Positions 8,623 to 57,823 are shown, counted from the stretch's first letter. The stretch is DNA of 64,000 nucleotides from Candidatus Nomurabacteria bacterium (GCA_020632075.1 JACKGH010000001.1:458852-522851), one strand, 5' to 3'. Notes: a model not told the origin generated them from the sequence alone. Made by a program: numbers and translations.

Positions 8623-9515
8623 TGCCAAACAACCCAGTCATGTTCGAGATAACTGTGTTTTCTAGTGTTGTATACGGCCTAGCGCTGTGTACTGTCTACT
8701 ACCTAGTAGTCTCTGCAATCAAAAAGCAGCTCGTACGAATTCACTTTCGTACAGCTTTTTTCTATATCACACTCTTTTGTCTCTTCGGGATCGCGGGAGA
8801 AGTCTTTGTAAACAATATATGGGAACACATCTTTGGCTGGCCTCTATGGGAGTACCGACTGTTCCCTGCTCACGGCGGTGATATCAGTTACTTCTTTCCA
8901 CTTATCTGGGGCATGCTCGGTTTTTACAAATACATCAATGACACTGCGTTTCACCGCTTCCCGCCCGATCAGCACCTCAAGCCAGCTGTGATCATGGGTG
9001 CCGAGGCGATTCTTCTCGAACTCGTCTACAACGGCTTATTCCTTCTTCTTTTTGATGAATACATCTTTTACTATCTCCCCGCCAACATGGGGCCGCTTTC
9101 GCACCTATCTTGCTGGCAAGTGATTCCATTTTATTTCGTCGTCGGCTTCTTCACGAGCGAGTTGATTCACGGACAACAAAAAGCCGGATACCACAACCGT
9201 GTCTTGCTCCGCATTGCATTCTACTGGATGGTGATTGGAGCCTTGATACTCTTTAGTAAAACCGGCCGGCGGCCTTCGGGGCCGGCCGGTTTTACGTCAT
9301 CTATTTCAAATCCTAATACGACTTCAGTCGTCGCGCCTTCTCGTGCTGGCGGATTTTCTCGAGCGCTTTCGCTTCGATCTGTCGGATACGCTCACGAGTC
9401 ACCCCAAACTCTTTACCAACCTCTTCAAGCGTATGATACGTCCCATCGAGGAGTCCATGTCGCATCTCAAGAATCTTTCGTTCTTTCTCTGAAAGTGTAT
9501 CGAGGATCTCAGTGA
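8622..9515 (+). CDS. hypothetical polytopic membrane protein; 3' end uncertain
   Basis: 297-aa ORF with GTG start overlapping the upstream stop, or ATG at 8640; several hydrophobic segments. The frame reads through the rpoD terminator hairpin (9258-9296) and about 200 nt antisense to the rpoD 3' end. Confidence 0.45.
9258..9296. terminator. intrinsic terminator downstream of rpoD
   Basis: aaaccggccggcggcc-ttcg-gggccggccggtttt (~14-bp GC stem). Confidence 0.85.
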
Positions 9516-10704
9516 TCTGGTCAGTGAGAATGCTATGCGCCACTTCCTGATCTGGTGACGTGATCTTATCATCAGAAATAAAGTCTGAGAGACGTGAGCG
9601 ATCATCATCATCACCCACCGGCAGTTCGAGTGAAATAGTATCCTGTGAGATCTTTTCGATCTGATACACCTTTTCTACCTCTACCTGCATTTCAGTTGCA
9701 ATTTCTTCGGGCATCGGGTCGCGACCAAGGTCTTGTGCCAAGCGGCGAGACACCTGCTTGTACTTCGCCATGGTTTCCACCATATGAACCGGAATACGAA
9801 TCGTACGTGACTGGTCAGCGAGTGCACGTGTGATCGCCTGGCGAATCCACCAGGTCGCATAGGTAGAGAACTTAAATCCCTTCGTGAAATCGAACTTGTC
9901 TACCGCCTTGAAGAGACCGAGGTTTCCTTCCTGGATCAAGTCAAGCAAGGTAAGGTCAGGTGAACGACCAACATACTTCTTCGCGATCGATACCACGAGA
10001 CGAAGGTTTGCTCGTGCAAGGAGGTTACGTGCCTCATCGTCACCTTCCACAATACGCTTTGCGAGCACGCGCTCTTCGTGCGCATTAAGCAGTGGGTACT
10101 GACCGATCTCCCGCAGATACATCTGGATTGAATCGTATCCACTATCGCTACGCTTGAAAGCATTCTTTTGCGCCAAGACTTCAGTACTTGGATCTTCACC
10201 AAGCATGCCGCCGCTCTGGAGCACATCAATACCAGCGATACTAAAACGTTCGTAGAGCGTATCTAGAAAATCTACATCCTTCTCGATCTCCGGAAACGCG
10301 CGCAAAAGCTCATCGTAGGTTACATACCCACGTTCTTTTCCAAGCTGCATTAGTTCTGCAGATTTCGCCTCGAGCAACTTTTCACTCTTAGTCAGCTTCT
10401 TTGGTGCAACCTTCTTTACGGCCTTTTTAACAACCTTCTTTACGGCCTTTTTAACAACCTTCTTTACCACTTTCTTTGCTGGCGCTTTTTTCGCAGCAGA
10501 AGCAGCCGCTTTCTTGGCGACTTTTTTCACAACTTTCTTTACTACCTTCTTTGCTGCAACTTTCTTTGCAACGGTTTTTTTGGCCACAGCTGTTTTCTTT
10601 GTAGCTTTTTTCGGGGCCGATTTTTTTGGTTTTGTCACGGTTTTTTTCACCGCTTTTTTCGCAACTTTTTTTGTGGCTTTTTTGGCAGCCATAATGTTCC
10701 TCAC
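9313..10704 (-). CDS. rpoD: RNA polymerase sigma-70 factor RpoD with ~100-aa Lys/Ala-rich N-terminal extension
   Basis: 463-aa ORF; sigma-70 regions 1.2-4 ([56 protein letters not shown]); N-terminus is KKAxKKV repeats. Confidence 0.92.
10408..10455 (-). repeat. exact 24-nt tandem duplication (caaccttctttacggcctttttaa x2) within the Lys/Ala-rich coding region of rpoD
   Basis: Read directly; the broader degenerate KKAVKKV-coding repeats span ~10390-10690. Confidence 0.8.
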
Positions 10705-10727: not shown

Positions 10728-12485
10728 CTAGTCCCTAATCTTAAGGAAACTGTCTGATTCATACGCCGGCTCCCGTCGTTTTGTTTCACAAACTTTTATC
10801 TCATTAAGTAGCTCCGCCACACGATTGTCATTCTGTGCATCTTCTGCAGCTTGCAGTTCCTGTCGCAATTCAGCCAATCGTTTCTTGATCGCATACGTTT
10901 TAAACTGATTAAGCTTTGCGACTATCTCTTCAAGGACGGCATGCTCAGGTAAGCTAGCAAAATGCTGCTCGATCATAAAGATCACCCCCGCAATATCGGC
11001 GTCAGTCGGGTCAGCCAGAGTGGTCAGCTCACTGATCAACTTCATTTCTGGTTCAACTTTACTAGAAATAGCTGCGTCAATAACCTGCAGTGCGGCCGAC
11101 AGATACACGAACGACTTCTGCGCCGTGTCCACCTGCACCACCACCTCAGGCCGAGCAGTTCGTTCCCTTTGCTCGGACTCTACTGACGTCTGTTCTCTCG
11201 AACTCGACTGCTCACGAAGTCGATCAAGCTCAAACCGGATCGCGTCAGCTGTCGTACCGATCGCTTCGGCTACCTTACCGACAAAGTGCTCCTGATCGAT
11301 CCGATTAGGTAGCAGCAAGATAAATGGCAACACCTCATCGCGTGCCTTTAGCTTGAATGATCGATCATCCTCGATCTCCCGTCGTAGTACATGCAGTAAA
11401 AATTCGATCACATGCACTGACTTCCCGATCACCTGCTTAAACTGCGCCGGATCCTTTTGAATCATATCAGCCGGATCTTCGCCGAGTGGTAACTCTGCTA
11501 CTTTTACATCAAGTCCGCGACCGAGCATAACCGATGCACTTTTTTTCATGGCATTAATGCCGGCGCGATCAGCATCGAGCGCAAGCACGACTCGATCAGA
11601 GAGTCGCTCCAGGAGCTGTACATGATGGAGCGTGAGTGCTGTACCAGACACCGCTACTGTATTACCGTAGCCGGCCTGATGGCACATCACCACATCAAAC
11701 TGCCCTTCAACGATCAGTGAGAAATTGAGCTTGCGGATACTCTCCTTTGCTTTGTCGTAGCCAAATAGTAGATCAGACTTTTTATAGAGTAGTGTCTCTG
11801 GTGAGTTTACGTACTTCGGTGCTTTATCATCAGGATGCAGAATGCGTCCTGAAAAGGCAACGATTTTACCACTTGGCTCTGCCATCGGAAACATCACCCG
11901 ATCACGAAAGACGTCAAATGGTTCTTTCCCGCCTTCGGTAGTCTTGATGAGTCCAGCCTTGAGAATCTCGTCTTTCGTAAAGCCTTTTGCTTCGAGCTGC
12001 TCTTTCACGTGTCGCCAGCCGTGCTTAGGCGGGCCGGGCGCGTAGCCGATCCGCCACTTTGCAATGGTCTGCGGAGTCACTCCGCGGCGCTTGAGATATG
12101 CTGCTGCTTCTGATTCTTGATCAAGCCACTCCGCATAAAACACTGTCGCCGCCTCAAGCGCCGCGTACAACCGCTCTCGCTCACTGCGCTTTTTTGGATC
12201 TTCAGGCACCAGCTCTACTCCTGCCTTGTCGGCCAAGATCTTCAGCGCTTCTTTGAAATCAACTCCTTCCATCGCCTGCACAAAGCTGAACATATCGCCG
12301 CCCTGCGAGGTAGAAAAACAGTAGTACATCCCACGGTCAGGTGAGACGTAAAACGACGGCGTCTTCTCAGAAGAAAACGGTGACTTACCTTTAAAGTTCT
12401 TTCCTGCTTTGTGTAGCTCAACGTACGGCGTGATAACGTCCAGAATACTGAGTTTGTCTTTGATCTGCTGCACCGCATCGCTCAT
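10728..12485 (-). CDS. dnaG: DNA primase DnaG
   Basis: 585-aa ORF; TOPRIM region [26 protein letters not shown] and DADRAG; N-terminal zinc-binding-domain scaffold (EKTPSF) with ligand residues mostly replaced; immediately upstream of rpoD (classic dnaG-rpoD arrangement). Confidence 0.9.
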
Positions 12486-22818: not shown

Positions 22819-23235
22819 TTACTTACAACTTAAACTTTCGGGTTCGTCGACTAACTCTACACCATTATTAGACTCGTCAACACAATAGTAATTCCCCTCA
22901 TTATACTGAAACACACTCGCTCTCCATTCGTCTGACGAATCAACACACGTAACATTTGAGTCATCACCCCCATAAGAATCCTGCATAAGCTTCAGGTCTT
23001 CACTCGCTGACTCTAGATAAATCGTGACTGATTCTGAATCACAGCCACCCTTGTAACTATACTGATTTTGATTCCGGTACAATTCCATTTGTGATCGAAT
23101 ATTAGTCAGCTTTTGCTGCAACGCTTCTCCGATACAGTAACTTTCAAAACCATCACAACTATCTTTATCTAAAAGCAACCCATATACAACTACCGCAGAA
23201 AGACACAGACCAATAATTACAATAGTTTTTTTCAT
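22819..23235 (-). CDS. hypothetical secreted Cys-containing protein
   Basis: 138-aa ORF; signal peptide MKKTIVIIGLCLSAVVVYG; 6 Cys. Confidence 0.5.
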   Translation of the reverse strand: MKKTIVIIGLCLSAVVVYGLLLDKDSCDGFESYCIGEALQQKLTNIRSQMELYRNQNQYSYKGGCDSESVTIYLESASEDLKLMQDSYGGDDSNVTCVDSSDEWRASVFQYNEGNYYCVDESNNGVELVDEPESLSCK

Positions 23236-28590: not shown

Positions 28591-30831
28591 TTACTTTGCC
28601 ACAGCAGCCGCTTCATCAAACTTCACTGAGAGTACTTTCGAGACACCGTCGGCACCCATGGTAATACCATAGAGAATACCAGCACGACTCATAGTCTCTC
28701 GATTATGTGTGATAAGCACGAGCTGCGACTTCTTTGCAAGGGCCTCGATCATGTCTCCGTATCGGCGACTATTAGCCTCATCAAGCGCTGCGTCGGTCTC
28801 GTCGAGAATAATGAACGGTGGTGGATTGACCTGACTCATTGCAAAGATAAGTGCGATGGAAGTAAGCGCTCGCTCACCGCCTGAAAGCATCTCAAGACCC
28901 TTGACCCGTTTGTTTGGTAGCGAGACATGCAACTCGACTCCGTCCTCGATCTGTGAATCTTCCTCGCCCTCTTCTTCATCACCACGCTTTTTGAGCTCAA
29001 CCCGCTTAAGACTAGCCGCTCCACCACCAAACATAAGGGTGAAAAATGTATGAAATTCTTTCGTGATCTTCTCTAGACCAATGGTAAATTGCTCTTGTAG
29101 CTTCCCTTGCATATCGACGATCAGCTCTTTGAGATTCTGTACCGACTCTTCCAAGTCTGAGAGCTCACGAGCCAAAAATTCATCACGTTCTTTGACAGTG
29201 TTGTATTCCTTAAGCAGGTCCTCGGTTGCACCAACACCAAGCTCCTCAAGTCGGATCTTGAGCTTTTCAAGATCGTGCTGTCGCTTGCGCTGCACACCAC
29301 GATCTTCACTGATGATCATTTGTTCAGTAAGAGTAGAACCAGATTCATTGATGATCTCTTGCTGGTAGTAGTCTGAGGCACCACGACCAAGGAGCGTGAC
29401 CGCTTCTTGTAGTTGTACTTTAAAATCTGCGCGGTCACGCTCCAATACTGCCAACTCCCGATCGATCGCCGCCAATTTCCCTTCACTGTCTCGCTGCTCA
29501 TTCATGAGTTCAAACATCTCTCGTTCTGCTTCGCGATTCTTTTCCGTATCGGCTAGCTGTGCTGACTGCAATCCCTTCAGCTTCGTTGCCGCCTCTTCTT
29601 CAACACCAACCGCTTTGGCAACCATCTTCTCTGCAGCGTGCAACATCTTTGAGAGCGCTTCCAGTTCTTCTTGATCAGCCGCACTTGTGTCGATCACCTC
29701 ACCTTGTTCAGTCTTTAGAAAACCGCGCAACTTCTCTAACAAGTCTTTTAGAGCGCGCTTTACTTCCTTTACATCATCTACATCGAGCGCCTTTTCAGCG
29801 TGCTTCTCGAGCGATTCAACCAACTCTTCAAGCTGAGCTCGTGAGACGACAGTACTCACCGCTGTTTTCTTAGGTGGCGTTGTTAGGCGACGCTCAATGA
29901 ATGAGACCTGCCCTTCAAGCTTGCTGTATTCTCGTTCAGCCTCCTGACGAGCTTGTGCAGCCTTGCGCAACTCCGCCTCAGCTTCAGTTAACTCAGCTGG
30001 TACTTCTGCGGTTTCGGTTTTAGCCAAGAGTGCTTTTACCTCCACCAACTTTTCCTTCACTTCTTCCAGCTGTTTAGCTGGATTCGATCGTTCTTTGGTA
30101 AGGCGATCAAAGTGATGTGCGACATACACATCTTCGCGTTTCAGGTACTCAGCATACTTCGTTCGCAGCTCTTTTTGCACCTCAAGCGAACGTTCAGCTT
30201 TTTCTACCTGCTTCTTTAAATATTTTAAATGTGGCGCAGCCTCACGACGGAGGGACTCAACCTGCGCGATGTTTTCATGGGTCTTTTCTAGTTTGCGCTC
30301 AGTTTCTTGTTTTTTGAGTTGGTACACCTTGAGACCAAGGGCATCTTCGATCATTTCACGACGCTCTTTCGGACCAGCAGCAAGCACTCGATCAGCTTCC
30401 CCCTGGGAAATGATGTGATGTCCGGTCGAACCTATATTCGCGCCAGCTAAAAGCTCATGGATATCTTTGAGTCGAACCGAAGAGTCGTTGAGCTTGTATT
30501 CGTTTTGACCATCACGATGGACGATACGCTCGATTTTGACTTCGTCAAAATCGAGCGCAAGCGACCGACTCTTATTATCGAACACTACCTGCACACTCGC
30601 TCGATTACCACGCGAGACCTTCTCTGAACCACCCCAGATGAGGTCCTCACCACGCTTGCCACGCATTGACTTCACCGACTGCTCTCCGAGTACAAAACGA
30701 AACGACTCAGCAGTATTACTTTTCCCTGAACCGTTCGGACCAACGATCGCGGTGATCGGCGCAGAAAATTCGAGCTCGCTTTTTTTAGCGAATGACTTGA
30801 AGCCATTGATGGTGAGCTCTTTCAAATACAT
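28591..30831 (-). CDS. smc: SMC-family chromosome-partition ATPase, unusually short (746 aa, no evident hinge domain)
   Basis: N-terminal Walker A IVGPNGSGKSN with the canonical SMC N-terminus; C-terminal signature LSGGERALTSIALIFAM and Walker B FIILDETDAALD; central region is coiled-coil-like, with no globular Gly-rich hinge. Confidence 0.8.
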   Translation of the reverse strand: MYLKELTINGFKSFAKKSELEFSAPITAIVGPNGSGKSNTAESFRFVLGEQSVKSMRGKRGEDLIWGGSEKVSRGNRASVQVVFDNKSRSLALDFDEVKIERIVHRDGQNEYKLNDSSVRLKDIHELLAGANIGSTGHHIISQGEADRVLAAGPKERREMIEDALGLKVYQLKKQETERKLEKTHENIAQVESLRREAAPHLKYLKKQVEKAERSLEVQKELRTKYAEYLKREDVYVAHHFDRLTKERSNPAKQLEEVKEKLVEVKALLAKTETAEVPAELTEAEAELRKAAQARQEAEREYSKLEGQVSFIERRLTTPPKKTAVSTVVSRAQLEELVESLEKHAEKALDVDDVKEVKRALKDLLEKLRGFLKTEQGEVIDTSAADQEELEALSKMLHAAEKMVAKAVGVEEEAATKLKGLQSAQLADTEKNREAEREMFELMNEQRDSEGKLAAIDRELAVLERDRADFKVQLQEAVTLLGRGASDYYQQEIINESGSTLTEQMIISEDRGVQRKRQHDLEKLKIRLEELGVGATEDLLKEYNTVKERDEFLARELSDLEESVQNLKELIVDMQGKLQEQFTIGLEKITKEFHTFFTLMFGGGAASLKRVELKKRGDEEEGEEDSQIEDGVELHVSLPNKRVKGLEMLSGGERALTSIALIFAMSQVNPPPFIILDETDAALDEANSRRYGDMIEALAKKSQLVLITHNRETMSRAGILYGITMGADGVSKVLSVKFDEAAAVAK

Positions 30832-30833
30832 AG

Positions 30834-31430
30834 CTATTCACACTGGCCACCAGCGCTATAAACTGCTACGGTTTCATAGAAATCTGTTGAAGCCTTATAT
30901 GCAGCGTCATGAGTATTACCATCACACTCACCACAGCTCGTCGGACAACGAGCAAACGTGTCGTCAGGCTGAATCCCATCTGCAGCAGTATCAAATCCTC
31001 CTAGACAATTTTCAGCCGTTAGCTTAAACCAGTTTTGACTAGCTGATCCAACATTGTATATGTACGTACACGCTGAGTTTGCTGAGTCGTCAGGACTCGG
31101 AAGACTTGAAATGAAATCGGGGATCAGATCATCAACGAATGGATTGATGGCACAATGCCCAGCTCCTCCGGTATCAGAGTCTGCTGTTGAGGTTGCTGCG
31201 GCGGTTGTTCCGCAGGCAGGAATATCTGGATAATGTCCATGTTGTGCTCGATACAATTCAATTGCTAACTGCAACTCTTTTAACTCCGAAAACACCTCTT
31301 TGTTACGTGCTTCAGTACGAGCATGTCCAAAATTGGCGTACAAGATAGCGGACAAGATACTGATGATCGCCACTACGACCATGATCTCAACTAAGGTGAA
31401 ACCTTTTCGTGCAAGATAGCTTTTTTTCAT
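30834..31430 (-). CDS. type IV pilin / pseudopilin (prepilin-type N-terminal methylation domain)
   Basis: 198-aa ORF; KGFTLVEIMVVVAIISIL class III signal; C-terminal Cys residues. Confidence 0.8.
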   Translation of the reverse strand: MKKSYLARKGFTLVEIMVVVAIISILSAILYANFGHARTEARNKEVFSELKELQLAIELYRAQHGHYPDIPACGTTAAATSTADSDTGGAGHCAINPFVDDLIPDFISSLPSPDDSANSACTYIYNVGSASQNWFKLTAENCLGGFDTAADGIQPDDTFARCPTSCGECDGNTHDAAYKASTDFYETVAVYSAGGQCE

Positions 31431-31479
31431 AGAATCATTATAACGTAGCCCTTCTAGAGTCTAGGCTACTTACTACCAC

Positions 31480-32157
31480 TTACGGCATTCGGCAGATCAC
31501 CTTTTCGAGCTCTTCTTCGTAGCGAACTGCATTCAATGGCCTAGGCTCATCAGGATAACCACCCCACAACCCGTATGAGTACCGAAACTCACTGTCAGTA
31601 TTATCGCATTTGATAACGCCCAGTCCACCAAATGGTGACACTGCGTTACAAACAGCATCAGGATTGTTATCACTCACATCACAGCTCATGAATGGATGAG
31701 GATCAGGGTAAAAAGCATTCGGTTTTTGGATACCTGGCGGCGTAAGTTCTGCTGTACGAGCAGCCATGATCTTGTACGCCGAGCGAGCTGCGTTAGTCAC
31801 GTAGATGTAGCCAGAATTATTCCCATTACGCTTCGGGTCGGTCGGCAATGCGCGAATGTACTCAGGAGCCAAGCCAACGATATACTGACCATCATCTGCA
31901 CTTGGACAATCATATATCGTGCCGATCTCACCAGACCACACCAGCGCTCCGTTGCAGCCTGGAGGGTACATTCCTTTATCTAGTTTGTACTGCTCGATCG
32001 CACTCTGCAGCGCTCTAAGATCAGCCTGTCGCTGCGCATTTCGAGACTGAACTGAGGCGTCATTGAAGTTGTAATACAACAGACTAGAAAGAATTGTGAT
32101 AACAGCCACCACAACAAGCATCTCTGGAAGAGTAAAACCTAGTGAAGAGCGATTCAT
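31480..32157 (-). CDS. type IV pilin / pseudopilin
   Basis: 225-aa ORF; GFTLPEMLVVVAVITIL prepilin motif; C-terminal Cys residues. Confidence 0.8.
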   Translation of the reverse strand: MNRSSLGFTLPEMLVVVAVITILSSLLYYNFNDASVQSRNAQRQADLRALQSAIEQYKLDKGMYPPGCNGALVWSGEIGTIYDCPSADDGQYIVGLAPEYIRALPTDPKRNGNNSGYIYVTNAARSAYKIMAARTAELTPPGIQKPNAFYPDPHPFMSCDVSDNNPDAVCNAVSPFGGLGVIKCDNTDSEFRYSYGLWGGYPDEPRPLNAVRYEEELEKVICRMP

Positions 32158-33011: not shown

Positions 33012-33914
33012 CTATTTTGAGCCCCTGCCAACCAAAACCGTAACTGCCTTGGTAACGATCGGAAGAATGTCTTCGTAGAAGTTGAGCTCGAGAATATCAG
33101 CTACTTTGAACCATTTTGCGTCGTCAAGACCGCCCTTCTTGAGCAGTTCAATATCCTGATATGGTGCATTAGCTAGAAAGTAGTGTACCTGCTTGCGCAC
33201 TTTGCCTTTTTCTGGCTGTGAAGCGACGTATTCATTATTGCCAAGCTCTTGCTCAAGCGTGATTGGAAGACCAACTTCTTCAAGGAGTGCGCGAGTTGCC
33301 CCCTCCTCGACCGTTTCTTCTTCCTTCACCTTACTCTTAGACAAAGTCCAGTGACCAAAGATATCGTGTACAAGCGCAAGGTACAGCTGCCCTTCGTGTT
33401 CTGCGTAGACTACCGCACCAGAAAGACGCTCAATTGGCATTTGATCAAACGGCACATCTTTCTTGCGACGCTTACTCACCTCATCCTTTCCAGGTTCACC
33501 GATCTCCTTGTAGACCGCACCGAGTACACCGTTTACAAACCGACTACTATTATCGCCACCAAACTGCTTGGCGAGTTCGATCGCTTCGTTGATCGCCACC
33601 TTTGCTGGCACTTCTGCTCGATCAGCAAAAAGCAGCTCGTACAGCCCGAGTCGGAGAATATTTCGATCAACTGGAGAGATGCGGTCGATCGGCCAGTCTG
33701 GTGCAGCCTTTTCGATCACGAGGTCGAGCTCCGGCTGCTTCGCCATAACGCCGTCGAGTAGTTTTTCCATAAATGGCATATCGGTCTTGTTGGGCGCGAA
33801 TTCTGCGACGTTTCGCTCCAAGACTTCATGAACTGCTTTTTTCTCAAGCGCATTTAAATCCCACTCAAAGAGTGACTGAAGAACAATGCTGCGTGATAAA
33901 TGTCGATTTGCCAT
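33012..33914 (-). CDS. nusB: transcription antitermination factor NusB fused to a C-terminal Nudix-like domain
   Basis: 300-aa ORF; N-terminal ~140 aa NusB-like (RSIVLQSLFEWDL, ILRLGLYELLF); C-terminal ~150 aa has a Nudix-fold pattern GHWTLSKSKVKEEETVEEGATRALLEEVGL with a degenerate Nudix box. Confidence 0.8.
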   Translation of the reverse strand: MANRHLSRSIVLQSLFEWDLNALEKKAVHEVLERNVAEFAPNKTDMPFMEKLLDGVMAKQPELDLVIEKAAPDWPIDRISPVDRNILRLGLYELLFADRAEVPAKVAINEAIELAKQFGGDNSSRFVNGVLGAVYKEIGEPGKDEVSKRRKKDVPFDQMPIERLSGAVVYAEHEGQLYLALVHDIFGHWTLSKSKVKEEETVEEGATRALLEEVGLPITLEQELGNNEYVASQPEKGKVRKQVHYFLANAPYQDIELLKKGGLDDAKWFKVADILELNFYEDILPIVTKAVTVLVGRGSK

Positions 33915-43206: not shown

Positions 43207-46200
43207 TTATGAAACAGCCTTCACTGCTTTCATGATAGCCATCTTCACGGCTTCTTGTTCAGAGGTGTATGTACCATCGAGTGCACTCGTAAGTGCAGAG
43301 ATCGCATTTTTGAGCTGCCCATCAGACAACCGAGTAGTTTCTCGCGTAAGCATGTCTGAAACCTTTTCAGAACCACCCTTACGATTGCGATAGACCGCAT
43401 CAAGGTCGGCAGAAGCGTCAGCTAGTGCAAACATTGGTCGCTTTCCGATCATCTCGTACGCAGCAACGATGTTGCCAGTCACGATCGCTTCAGCAAGTGA
43501 ACCGGTACCTTCAGGTACTGTCGCTGGAATGAACGGCTCCTGACTTGAAGACACTTGACCGACCTGACACACGTCACACAGATTACGCATGCGTGCTTCG
43601 TTGATAACGATCCAGCCGTCTTCAAGCGGGTACGTTTTCTTTGCTTCTGCGATCACTGTATCAAGCGCTTCGTTACGCTCAACTTCACCTGTGGTCGTGC
43701 CTACAAAGTGACGCACCGCATCACTTGAAAGTAATGCCTTTTGGGCGTGCGCACGGTTCTCAAGATCAGTTACTACTGCATCGTCCACCTGATGTGGATT
43801 TACCGCAGGAACTTCGACCTCGTTTTCTTTGTGGTTTTCATAACCGATCGCTGGCGTACCAGTTGGCAAATTACTCGGAGTTGCAAAGTCAGCTGGCGCT
43901 GGAGTAGTGGTCACCGACTTCACAAAGAGGTCAGGCTTCACTCCTTCCGCCTTCTGCATTGCCGCCACACCATCGAAAGATGGTGATGGTGTGGCCTTAG
44001 TAAAATTTACCGGCGAATCAGTTACGGTTCGCTTTCGGATCACCAAAAGGTAGGTAATGAAGAATGCCCATGCCACAAGCAATCCATAGAAGAGGAAAGT
44101 CATGATCGGACCAGCTTCAAAACCGGTGTATGGCACCTGTGAGAGTGAGATACCAGCAACGAGTGGCTGCTGATCGCGAGTCTGTAGCACAACTACATCA
44201 TCATCGATCGCAACAGCAACAGTACACTCATCTTCACGTGAACCTCGCTCAGCAAGCAATGTGAACTTCGTGTCACGAGTTGGACGCAAGGTAAGCTCAC
44301 CATCGTAGTAATCCTCCTTGTCACTTGCAAGGTAATCATCAGTCGTGAAGAGGATCTCACCACGATCGTCCTTGATCGTTACCTCAGTTGCGCGTGAAGT
44401 GTCCCACGTAAGAGTCACTTCATCGCCACGTGAGATACGAGTGTCTGAAATATCGAGTTCACAACGTGGTGATGAGCTTCCGCCACCGCCACCGCCGCTT
44501 GATACATCAATAGTAAGTGGACAGGTAATGGTCTTATCACCCTGCGTAGCAGTAAGAGTGTACGTAGTGTCATCAGATGGAGTTACTGACTGGCTTCCAG
44601 AAAGTGAAGTCGCATTGATGTTACTGATCGATACCGTATCAACGTTGGTTGTACTCCAGTTAAGTGTACTTTCGCTACCACGCGTGATCGAGTAGTCATC
44701 CGCAGTGAAGGTAACGTTATCAGCACACGTGAATACCGGCTCTGGATCTGCTACCGCAACTGGCGCCACACAACTCACCTGATCATTGTTCCCGTCGATC
44801 GCAGTGAGAGTGAACGTGGTTGATTCAGTTACGTTAAGTGACTGTGAACCAGTAAGTCCGACAGTTCCTATCGTTGGTGTGATCGATACTGTATTTGCGC
44901 CAGTTACTTCCCAGTTAAGTGATACTGGACCACCGCCATATGGAAGCTGGTTTGGTGTTGCAGTGAAGAATTCACATACTGGCACCGGATCTTCTGAGAC
45001 AGTTACTGGTGCCGTACAGTTCACAGTCTGATCGTTCTCACCTTTGACCGTGAGGATGTAGGTAGTGTTAGTTGTTGGAGAAACAGTATGTGTACCATCT
45101 ACAGCAACAATACCGATCCCATTATCAAGACTGACCTCAGTCGCGTTGGTGGTTTCCCAAGTCAAAGTTGTGCTGTCTCCAACGGTAATACCTGATGGAT
45201 TAGCCACGAACAGATCACAGCTTGGGAGCTTAGGCACTTCAACAGTTACCGGTACCTGACATTCTGTCACCTGGTCCTTCTGACCGATCACGGTCAGAGT
45301 GTATGTGATAGTAGCAAGCGGTGTCACGCTGATCGAACCATCTGCAGAAACTGCACCGATACCGTTGTTGATAAACACCTGATCAGCGTTTGAACTCTCC
45401 CACGTAAGGGTTGCGCTTTCACCTAGCAATATGGTGCTTGGAGTTGCAGTGAACAGATCACAGCTTGGCACTGGTACGATCGACACGTCAACCGGTACTG
45501 AACAAGTAACCGACTGACCAGTCGCTCCGTATACAGTAAGTGTGTACGTTGTATCTACTGTAGGCGATACAACGATCGAACCATCTGCAGAAACTGCACC
45601 GATACCGTTGTTCATAACAACATCAGTTGCGTTTGAAGTATTCCAGGTCAAGGTTGCGCTGTCGCCGACCATGATCGCAGTTGGATTAGCAGAGAAGTAA
45701 TCACAACTTGGAGCTGGTGGCTGTGTGACAGTCACCGGTACTGAACAAGTAACCGACTGACCAGCAAGACCTGCAACCGTCATGACGTAGGTCGTGTTGG
45801 TTGTTGGTGACACTGACACCGAACCGTCTGCAGCAACAACACCAACACCGTTGTTGATGGTTACTGATTCTGCGTTGGTTGTTTCCCATGTCAGAGTCAC
45901 TGTGCCACCGGTAGTGATCGTAGACGGAGTAGCAGTGAACATATCACAGCTCGGTGCCGGGATAGTAGTTACGGTCACTGGCACAGAACAGGTCACTGTT
46001 TGTCCAGTGCCATATGCTGTGAGTACGTATGTAGTATTGACTGTCGGTGACACAACGCGCGTACCGTCTACAGACACTGCACCGATACCGTTGTTAATAC
46101 TTACTGCAGTTGCGTTGGTTGTTTCCCAACTCAAAAGTGTCGTCTCACCAACAGTGATCACTGCTGGTGTCGCGGTGAATGAATCGCAACGTGGGACTGG

Positions 46201-47174
46201 AGTATAACAGTCGGTATCAATGAGAGTTCGAACAGTTTGGCTGTACTCCCAGGTCTGGAAGTTATTGAGTTCCTTGGCTGATGCCTTAGCTTGGTTGGTC
46301 ACTTCAAAATCACCACACTGTGCAGGAGTCTTTACGGTACCTCCCCACGTGATAGTTCCTACTTCACCTGGTTCGAGTACGTGTCCATTAAAACGAAGAG
46401 TTCGGTCGCTGGCGGTGTAGACAGGACTAGTGCCGTATCCAGCACTGAGATTCGATGACACTTGATACCAAGCGTAGTTCAGATCAGTGTCGACCACATC
46501 GACGATCTTCACTCCTCCACCAGTACAGTCAGCATCACCAACGTTCTTCACGGTGATAGTGTAGATGAGCTCGTCACCAGGTAGACCGACGGTCTTATTG
46601 ACTGATTTCTGAACATCAAGCTCACAGTACTTTGGAGTTTCTGGGGGCAGACAGGTGACTTGTACTTGCTGCACACACGACGATCCGCCGTTTGACAAAG
46701 CTTGCAAGGTAAAGATGGTACTTTCCTGAAGGTTATTGATCACCATCGAGCCTGAATCCGCTGAGACAGTATTGCCGTTGATCGTAATGGTGTCGAAACC
46801 ACTCGTTGACCAATTGAGGGTAAAGCTCTCACCAGTAGTTACAAGTGTTTTGCTAGCATCAAGTACACACTCGATAAAATCACTACTGTAAGCACCACCT
46901 GAAGTGTCCGTCGTGTAATTGAGATCAAAATCTCCACCAAGGTCCAAATTCGAACCTAGATCGAGATTTGTATCAAGATTTAGACCTGAGTTCAGGTCGA
47001 GATTTGTATCTAAATTGGTCCCAGGGCTAAAATCGATCCCTGAGTCGAGCTGCGTGAGCGCGATCGCAGTACTTGCTGGAGGCAAGACCGTGGTCACCAC
47101 AAACGCAAAGACCACCATCACACTTGCGATGGTCTTGAATTTCTTGTTCATAACATTACGCTTAGTTTGATTCA
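43207..47174 (-). CDS. giant cell-surface protein: signal peptide, DUF11-like domain, ~8 tandem Ig-like repeats, VPYTG + TM + RKR, then a ~280-aa cytoplasmic domain
   Basis: Start MNQTKRNVMNKKFKTIASVMVVFAFVV has AGGAG upstream (the 6-frame ORF starts at 47211); ~95-aa repeats CDxFTATP...TLTWETTNA...NNGIG...VSPTxNTTYxLT...VTCxVPV; Gly6 linker; VPYTGFEAGPIMTFLFYGLLVAWAFFITYLLVIRKR. Confidence 0.85.
44180..46190 (-). repeat. coding tandem repeats (~285 bp, ~8 degenerate copies) for Ig-like domains of the giant surface protein
   Basis: Periodic ~95-aa protein repeats bounded by conserved Cys; visible as a recurring DNA pattern. Confidence 0.7.
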
Positions 47175-47331
47175 TAACATCTATACTCCTGTCTACACCT
47201 GTGCGACACAAGAGTAATGAAGGTTACGAAACAGCGCCTACAATAAGGCTATCTAAGAACGTTGAGCGACTAGCTCACGGAGAACAAATGATGGAAAATC
47301 ATAGTTCAAAAAGCACCTTTTGTCAAGGAAT

Positions 47332-48054
47332 CTAGAGTGCTTGTACGTCAACGAGCTTGGCCTCTACGATGTAGCGATCGTCAACACTTCCAAAGCTGTT
47401 ACAAGTGGCCAACGTCAGCGTTTTACTGGTGCCTGCAATTGGCACTGTCACATCCTGGGCTCGAGCTCGATACACTTTTTCAACTCGATACTCATACATA
47501 CCATCTTCAGAATAGAGCTTGATCTTATCGCCCCACTCTAGATTCTGAATACCATTGAAAGCCTGGAAGTTTTTATTGAAGACTTGCGGCAAATAACTCG
47601 AGTGACCCAAGATGAAGACGGTCCCTTCCTGCGCCAACGTTGCAGAATCAGGATGCCGAACGACACCCTCGAGCAAAGACGCGTCAAGATCAGCGATCGT
47701 ACGTGAGGTCGGATTAAGCACTGTCACGTCTTTCTCAAGACGATCGATCACCAATCGCATTGGCAACACACCTTCAACTGAGATTGACTCAGACGACACT
47801 GCTGGAGCCACTTCAGGCTCATCTATTTCTTCTACCACTTCCTCGACTTCTGCTTCTGCTGTTTCTTCAGCCTGCGCACGCGGCGTAACCGAAACCACCT
47901 CAGTAGCTTCTTCTGTTTCCATTGTGGTTTCGGCCGGCGGCTCAGGAATAAAGTCGACCGCCACCAACAAAATGTACGTGAGCGTGAACACCAAAAAGAA
48001 CGTGCCAAGAAACACGGACTTCTTTGCCCAGATTTGATCAAACAGTGCGTTCAT
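47332..48054 (-). CDS. sortase (class undetermined)
   Basis: 240-aa ORF; N-terminal TM anchor; FILGHSS (His) and TLTLATC (TLxTC catalytic Cys) motifs; immediately upstream of the giant surface protein on the same strand. Confidence 0.8.
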   Translation of the reverse strand: MNALFDQIWAKKSVFLGTFFLVFTLTYILLVAVDFIPEPPAETTMETEEATEVVSVTPRAQAEETAEAEVEEVVEEIDEPEVAPAVSSESISVEGVLPMRLVIDRLEKDVTVLNPTSRTIADLDASLLEGVVRHPDSATLAQEGTVFILGHSSYLPQVFNKNFQAFNGIQNLEWGDKIKLYSEDGMYEYRVEKVYRARAQDVTVPIAGTSKTLTLATCNSFGSVDDRYIVEAKLVDVQAL

Positions 48055-57740: not shown

Positions 57741-57813
57741 GCCACCTTAGCTCAGTTGGTAGAGCAACGGTTTTGTAAACCGTGGGTCGTCAGTTCGAGT
57801 CTGACAGGTGGCT
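57741..57813 (+). tRNA. tRNA-Thr (anticodon UGU); CCA not encoded
   Basis: Cloverleaf read directly: acceptor GCCACCT/AGGTGGC, D-arm GCTCAGTTGGTAGAGC, anticodon arm ACGGT-TTTGTAA-ACCGT, T-arm GTCAG-TTCGAGT-CTGAC, discriminator U. Confidence 0.9.
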
Positions 57814-57823
57814 CAGAGTACAT

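Follow-up and report, generated by a model that had tools for sequence, protein, structure and literature searches.

The zinc-binding domain (ZBD) at the N-terminus of bacterial DnaG primases is built around a Cys3His (CHC2) site, and reviews describe its ligands as highly conserved, with no exception mentioned (PMC6163395, PMC8928506). Here, we describe the dnaG gene found in a stretch of 64,000 nucleotides from a Candidatus Nomurabacteria bacterium (GCA_020632075.1, JACKGH010000001.1:458852-522851), referred to below as the window. The encoded ZBD belongs to the same family (PF01807) and occupies the same place in the three-domain enzyme as the canonical domains of Geobacillus (1d0q) and Aquifex (2au3), with which it shares a similar predicted fold and the EKTPSF, GGD and F-x-F scaffold. 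It differs from them in three of the four ligands, in the knuckle glycine and in approximately ten co-varying positions. No description of a zinc-free DnaG ZBD was found in full-text literature searches.

In the C+/C- ribosomal proteins (S4, S14, L31, L33 and L36), Cys ligands have been lost and the proteins are still functional and conserved; they likewise occur in two discrete forms whose distribution disagrees with vertical descent, and horizontal gene transfer of both S4 forms has been documented (PMC3087516). Topoisomerase I, also a Toprim-family enzyme, carries C-terminal zinc-ribbon modules that bind single-stranded DNA and are either zinc-bound or Cys-free depending on the bacterium, with a C4 zinc in Topo_C_ZnRpt and no cysteines in Topo_C_Rpt (PMC9369019). 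These repeats belong to a different domain family from the DnaG ZBD and serve strand passage, not primer-site recognition. Compared with the ribosomal proteins, DnaG is a replisome enzyme, and its switch between states seems to involve a patch of approximately 40 codons in one gene, not whole-gene paralogues. In the U-box, as compared with the RING finger, hydrogen bonds and salt bridges reportedly replace the metal sites with retention of function, as Aravind and Koonin are said to have described in 2000; in that case, a zinc-stabilised fold was re-engineered to do without metal, although fold and function are unrelated to those of DnaG. The N-terminal primase-like domain of metazoan TWINKLE, which has a ZBD of the DnaG/T7 type, is likewise devoid of three of the four Cys ligands (PMC7231222). 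Whereas primase activity and catalytic residues are gone from TWINKLE, the DnaG proteins of the candidate phyla radiation (CPR) studied here keep all of their catalytic motifs and a highly conserved ZBD.

Results

The dnaG gene (10728-12485, minus strand) encodes a DnaG-type primase of 585 amino acids followed by a stop codon and was identified by its open reading frame (ORF), the TIGR01391 model, its Pfam domains and a match to PDB entry 2au3. A stretch flagged in an earlier, sequence-only reading of the window (12295-12383, minus strand) lies inside this ORF and corresponds to residues 35-64. In the HMMER alignment to 2au3, SPFS of the window protein stands under CPFH, and CFST stands under CFGC in the second knuckle. 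The alignment and the raw sequence place Ser35 (TCA, 12381-12383) at the first, canonically Cys, ligand position and Ser38 (TCT, 12372-12374) at the position of the canonical His. The third ligand, a Cys, is kept as Cys56 (TGT, 12318-12320), and the fourth, also Cys in canonical domains, is Thr59 (ACC, 12309-12311). The Gly between the third and fourth ligands is Ser58 (TCT, 12312-12314); all these codons lie on the minus strand. The sequence-only reading had named precisely these replacements, Cys to Ser, His to Ser, the second Cys kept and the third Cys to Thr, and it was also right that the surrounding scaffold is retained, since EKTPSF, GGD and F-x-F are conserved. It had further asked whether the true ligands might be elsewhere, and none were found. 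Residues 1-110 hold a single Cys (C56) and a single His (H25, which varies among relatives); therefore, no other part of the domain could form a classical Cys/His site.

In a search of 5.8 billion proteins, the top 120 homologues were 63-77% identical to the query. The pattern S-P-F-[S/A/T]…Y-Y-C-F-S-T, here called zinc-free, was present in 118 of them, which came from independent assemblies. Named best homologues were from Paceibacteria, Nomurabacteria, Kaiserbacteria or Parcubacteria, and the remaining two (P0097 and P0098) were canonical (CPFH…CYGC). At 41 loci with DNA, Ser35, Ser58 and Thr59 each used all four codons of the TCN or ACN box and Cys56 used both of its codons, with the amino acids at positions 35, 56, 58 and 59 unchanged. 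This synonymous turnover around fixed residues indicates purifying selection. Most of the differences between the two states fall within residues 24-62 (12300-12416, minus strand), a core ‘cassette’ which contains both knuckles and nearly all of the state-differing positions and was delimited by the state-linked columns and by a plateau in core identity. Zinc-free pairs with 70-80% identity in the catalytic RNA-polymerase domain (RPD) were 95% identical in the core and 33% identical in the C-terminal region. At an RPD identity of 40-50%, core identity was 0.68 for zinc-free and 0.69 for canonical pairs; at 50-60%, the values were 0.82 and 0.76, respectively. The zinc-free core is thus as conserved as the canonical one when catalytic domains of equal divergence are compared. 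It is the most conserved region of the zinc-free protein and shows no decay.

The wider distribution was established in a HMMER scan of 1.84 billion cluster representatives, in which the 150 nearest 50%-identity clusters were 37-54% identical to the query. A total of 147 of these 150 representatives were aligned through the ZBD, and their ligand states were CHCC (117) and S-x-[C/D]-[S/T] (30). Overall, the 269 aligned sequences comprised 120 of the former and 149 of the latter, and no partial site with two or three ligands occurred among them. Loci from species-representative genomes showed the same two-state split. In Saccharibacteria (SPFS…WHDFSS), every ligand was gone and the third Cys had become Asp; a Saccharimonadales search gave S-x-D-S, with no ligand Cys, in 120 of the 120 matches listed. 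The earlier reading had assigned the change to the lineage of the window, where it is indeed present, but it is not private to that lineage: judging from these sequences, the zinc-free form is widespread in the small-celled CPR/Patescibacteria, including its Cys-free Saccharimonadales version, and thus represents a genuine second version of an essential enzyme and no defect. The Asp56 variant (…GMYYDFSSGQGGD) was also found outside Saccharimonadales, in P0133 and P0151, whose catalytic domain is nearer to the Paceibacteria-like set; Asp may thus have replaced Cys56 on more than one occasion. One representative of 1358 amino acids (P0191) is a large fusion protein with a canonical CHCC DnaG module; four of its stretches match the query, and the primase region spans residues 846-1193. 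Some metagenome-assembled genomes with CPR-type dnaG (titles of L032, L031 and L057) are labelled Acidimicrobiales, Azotimanducaceae or Patiriisocius, and many Paceibacteria-like sequences carry the label ‘uncultured Candidatus Saccharibacteria’; these labels are likely binning or naming errors. A phage origin of the zinc-free ZBD was considered and rejected, as no phage record was more than 60% identical to it.

All state-linked changes lay within residues ~20-75, and no state-linked column (d > 0.5) was found in the RPD or the C-terminal region. Within the core, the state-linked columns were 25, 29, 33, 34, 35, 38, 53, 58, 59, 61 and 62. Zinc-free forms carry Ser at position 35 in place of Cys (100%), Ser at 58 in place of Gly (98%) and Ser or Thr at 59 in place of Cys. 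The canonical Ala33 is Gly, position 62 (Lys or Gly in canonical forms) is Gly, and position 72 (Phe or Ile) is Met. Positions 29 and 61, both variable in canonical proteins, are Lys or Arg and Lys or Gln, respectively. Position 53, which aligns with the specificity residue Ile58 of Geobacillus (PMC8928506), changes from Ser or Thr to a hydrophobic residue (Met, Leu or Ile). Position 56 remains Cys or, in Saccharimonadales and a few other lineages, is Asp. The former His position 38 accepts anything (S/A/T/N/K/V/G) and varies freely while 35 and 58 are fixed as Ser and 59 as Ser/Thr.

The AlphaFold2 model of residues 1-100 of the window DnaG had a pLDDT (predicted local distance difference test) of 88. 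Foldseek placed it on the Geobacillus ZBD (1d0q_A) with a template-modelling (TM) score of 0.87 and a root-mean-square deviation (rmsd) of 1.3 Å, so the structure prediction called for in the sequence-only reading returned the ZBD fold. TWINKLE was among the structural matches to this model, as a weak one. With regard to zinc use in the cell, the RpoC zinc site (CxCx12CxxC) and the catalytic Cys/His/His zinc site of ThrRS are kept in the same window; therefore, the organism has not abandoned zinc generally, and genome-wide abandonment was ruled out as far as the window is concerned. The Cys content was approximately 0.7%, which is low but not extreme. The zinc-ribbon ribosomal proteins L31, L32, L33, L36, S14, S18 and L28 were sought in the window and none was found; neither a second dnaG nor Zur-type regulation was seen within its 64 kb.

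The phylogenetic distribution of the two states was also determined. The neighbour-joining tree of the catalytic domain showed the zinc-free state as scattered and not monophyletic. Because the deep branches of this tree were short and unreliable, the clade containing the query (34 sequences, 100% bootstrap) was tested after the core columns had been taken out. In this tree, three canonical lineages nested among zinc-free ones, with bootstrap values of 88-100%. P0097/P0098 fell within a group of 16 members (92%), P0121 formed a pair with zinc-free L055 (98%), and L030/L033/L036 formed a clade with zinc-free L032 (100%), to which zinc-free L028 was sister (95%). The distribution of the C+ and C- forms of DnaG is thus incongruent with vertical descent, in the bootstrapped tree without the core as well as in the scatter of the wider tree. 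Among 128 canonical sequences, Tyr57 (CYGC) occurred only in the six canonical cores of these three lineages; therefore, these cores are related to each other, unlike the remainder of the genes that carry them. The codons at Ser35 provided further evidence. They were TCN in 41 of 41 Paceibacteria-type loci and AGY in eight of eight Saccharibacteria loci; each family is one step from Cys TGY, and the two are two steps apart through a non-Ser intermediate. The differing codon families therefore point to at least two losses converging on the same solution, and the sequence evidence argues for at least two independent origins of the zinc-free state. A single origin followed by vertical descent was rejected on account of the non-monophyly on the RPD tree, the supported nesting and the Ser35 codons.

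Compared with its closest relative, the canonical L030, L032 differed at 13 of 37 core positions, with ZBD flanks identical at 55 of 59. All 13 differences matched the local zinc-free type, including five of five non-signature positions. More generally, core identity between the states remained on a plateau of 0.55-0.67 even where the flanks were 0.78-0.91 identical. The residues preceding Ser35 varied in a different way from lineage to lineage: zinc-free L031 (KHMKGKSPF) and L028 (KSMKGKSPF) share H/S30-Met31 with canonical L030/L033/L036 (KHMKA[RKL]CPF), and L032 instead carries the N30-F31 of more distant zinc-free relatives. These differences within residues 29-35 suggest that the recombination breakpoints differ between lineages.

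The remaining parts of the protein were those of a regular primase. The TIGR01391 dnaG equivalog model (NCBIfam) matched at 388.5 bits (cut-off 283.6) over residues 3-408, and the match to the Aquifex primase 2au3 had E = 6.9e-67 over residues 1-377 (HMMER). In the Pfam search, Zn_ribbon_DnaG (PF01807) was found at residues 3-93 (99.3 bits, cut-off 24.9, E = 1.2e-28), together with DNAG_N and Toprim. The ZBD (residues 3-93; 12207-12479, minus strand) comprises a zinc-ribbon fold and flanking helices according to PF01807, AlphaFold2 and Foldseek. It is followed by the RPD (11454-12140, minus strand), with DNAG_N at residues 116-247 and Toprim at residues 257-344. The catalytic motifs VEGQFDV, LDADRAG, GEDPAD and PKYVNSPET are intact and align to 2au3 and 1dd9; all the tested motif classes of the Toprim RPD (EGxxD, DxD, DPD and KYxNS) were present. 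Residues 431-585 (10731-11195, minus strand), judged from their position and their identity among relatives (0.14-0.43), form a poorly conserved C-terminal region, presumably the helicase-binding domain, without a Pfam match. This region is poorly conserved across all DnaG (PMC8928506). Every testable sequence feature of DnaG was found apart from the CHCC ligands and, in the C-terminal domain, a Pfam match. On these sequence features, the gene is the organism's replicative DnaG primase, and its product is filed as a DnaG primase with a new ZBD variant.

The gene lies in a dnaG-rpoD operon context, with rpoD (9313-10704, minus strand; Sigma70 regions 1.1-4) directly downstream, and the same adjacency was found in the relatives L061 (canonical ZBD) and L063 (zinc-free). 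The window RpoD carries an N-terminal extension of ~110 amino acids ahead of sigma region 1.1, which is Lys/Ala-rich with repeated AKK/VKK motifs resembling histone H1; the whole RpoD has no Cys. Other observations concerned the rest of the window. A single 300-amino-acid ORF at 33012-33914 (minus strand) fuses a NusB domain (residues 7-136) and a NUDIX hydrolase (residues 167-282). A protein of 1334 amino acids with a signal-like N-terminus and 26 Cys (43207-47211, minus strand) adjoins a sortase gene (47332-48054, minus strand) and is, by its sequence, probably a sortase-anchored surface protein; approximately one in five of the Cys counted belongs to this protein, in a proteome that is otherwise poor in Cys. 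Two neighbouring proteins of 198 and 225 amino acids (30834-32157, minus strand) have type IV pilin-like N-termini (GFTLVEIMVV and FTLPEMLVV) and 6-8 Cys each, and a third Cys-rich small ORF lies at 22819-23235. An SMC_N-family protein of 746 amino acids without Cys is encoded at 28591-30831 (minus strand), whereas a typical bacterial SMC has ~1,180 amino acids. The only match of Rfam and tRNA scans of the window was a tRNA-Thr (57741-57814).

Discussion

We consider it likely that the ZBD of the window DnaG is a metal-independent ‘C-minus’ zinc ribbon which still does the work of a ZBD. It has the homology of a zinc ribbon, its Cys/His ligands are replaced, and it is still conserved, as in other C-minus domains. 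The loss of three of the four ligands (all four in Saccharimonadales) is the reason why we infer the absence of zinc. The sequence-only reading had proposed a domain that is folded but zinc-less, and this remains the best supported interpretation, given the single ligand left, the lack of a spare Cys or His, the free former His position, the strong purifying selection on the core and the ZBD fold reproduced by AlphaFold2. The Cys3His site is replaced by Ser35, a variable residue 38, Cys56 or Asp, and Ser or Thr at position 59, accompanied by the fixed changes of Gly58 to Ser, Ala33 to Gly, position 29 to Lys or Arg, position 53 to Met, Leu or Ile, and position 62 to Gly. The unconstrained former His position, the hydroxyls fixed at 35, 58 and 59 and the hydrophobic residues at 53 and 72 suggest that a network of hydrogen bonds and packing replaces the metal. 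Ser/Thr hydroxyls and the added hydrophobic packing would then take over its role in holding the two knuckles together. The converted domain would still recognise the template trinucleotide and control how the intact Toprim catalytic domain initiates primers. Several points weigh against this interpretation. Zinc-independence is deduced from sequence, and the same holds for the retained function and the stabilising interactions. AlphaFold2 does not take metals into account, and two of the sequences aligned for the model were canonical. When the Cys-free Saccharimonadales form was modelled at full length, the ribbon (residues 27-61) had a pLDDT below 50; modelling thus lends no support to fold retention in the fully Cys-free variant. 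The check for a second, canonical primase elsewhere in the genome covered the 64-kb window; a scan of the genome collection gave one dnaG locus per genome, but relied on query-specific peptide patterns.

One alternative is that a metal is still bound in a different manner, either zinc through Cys56/Asp56 and His55, carboxylates or water, or a hard cation (Mg2+, Ca2+ or Na+) on the oxygens of Ser, Thr or Asp, which would be a soft-to-hard swap and not a loss of metal. The replacements are non-random, as would be expected from such a site: positions 35, 58 and 59 always carry a hydroxyl, position 56 is Cys or Asp, and His55 stands beside it in 42% of the zinc-free forms and in all Saccharimonadales (WHDF). 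However, canonical forms have His55 just as often (35%), which rules it out as a compensating ligand, Ser and Thr are poor zinc ligands, and position 38 tolerates Ala, Val, Gly and Lys. The known C-minus zinc ribbons of ribosomal proteins and TopA repeats are metal-free (PMC3087516, PMC9369019). We regard a metal bound in another manner as improbable. Even less probable, in our view, is a decayed relic comparable to metazoan TWINKLE, in which the sequence specificity of priming would have been lost or relaxed, with priming being non-specific or carried out by another enzyme. TWINKLE, which has no primase activity (PMC7231222), resembles the window DnaG in its lost ZBD cysteines and in the weak structural match, and the zinc motif of the T7 primase is required for template recognition according to works cited in PMC2910064 and PMC6163395. 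Neither a degenerate primase nor relaxed constraint was seen in the window protein: its core is the best conserved part, its RPD catalytic residues are intact, unlike those of TWINKLE, and the gene stays in the dnaG-rpoD locus, with no other primase among the window ORFs scanned. An artefact of sequencing or assembly, or a pseudogene, has a practically negligible probability. Nothing beyond the oddness of the motif speaks for it, and it was ruled out by the intact 585-amino-acid ORF, the same state across hundreds of independent assemblies and the synonymous codon variation at the substituted sites. The sequencing error that could have restored the Cys codons, as envisaged in the earlier reading, was accordingly not borne out.

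With regard to the switch between the states, we lean slightly towards the view that the zinc-free and canonical cores are two discrete alleles exchanged between related Patescibacteria by short-patch recombination. In a switch of the L032 type, a patch of ~110-120 nt would have been replaced. The 13 of 13 core matches of L032, the shared Tyr57 and the nesting of the canonical lineages together favour patch replacement. The nucleotide data are less favourable to this part of the interpretation: in the comparison of L032 and L030, identical synonymous codons were found at seven of 23 sites in the core versus 175 of 327 elsewhere, which was marginal (p = 0.05), and for P0097 the synonymous sites were saturated, so that the test was uninformative about recombination. 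Strong convergent selection is the alternative, and convergence did occur between the Saccharimonadales and Paceibacteria types. The corresponding explanation, which concerns the exchange of cassettes alone, is that many independent conversions by point mutation took place under convergent selection and without recombination. The weak nucleotide evidence is compatible with it, and lineages with AGY (Saccharimonadales) and TCN (Paceibacteria-type) codons both reached C35S, G58S and C59S. We nevertheless find it rather unlikely, as it needs at least three to six conversions in one clade, each repeating the same ~13 residues, including sites that are not state-linked, as well as either a reversal to a working Cys3His site or the repeated loss of the clade-specific Tyr57.

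We tentatively propose that Patescibacteria may keep two interchangeable template-reading modules, a zinc-dependent one (CHCC) and a zinc-free one (S-x-C/D-S/T), which would have multiple origins and be swapped by short-patch recombination. The likely pressure would be a shortage of zinc, or damage by oxidation at zinc-thiolate sites, in minimal, defence-poor cells. The CHC2 zinc site is regarded as a universal feature of DnaG and has been considered as a target for antibiotics; in phage T7, template recognition depends on the zinc motif, and in animal TWINKLE the loss of this motif accompanies that of priming. If the two modules are indeed interchangeable, DnaG-type primases would not need the metal to recognise trinucleotides, in contrast to what studies of T7 and E. 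coli have suggested. Judging by their sequences, large radiations, including every sampled member of Saccharimonadales and a considerable part of the Paceibacteria-like lineages, would replicate with a primase ‘zinc finger’ that is unable to bind zinc classically and is under tight selection. Natural matched pairs that are 66-85% identical and differ essentially in a 40-residue core offer a direct test of the role of zinc. The finding would also point to mosaic evolution within dnaG, for which vertical inheritance is usually taken for granted, and it would bring the replisome, in addition to ribosomal proteins, under the C+/C- zinc-economy phenomenon.

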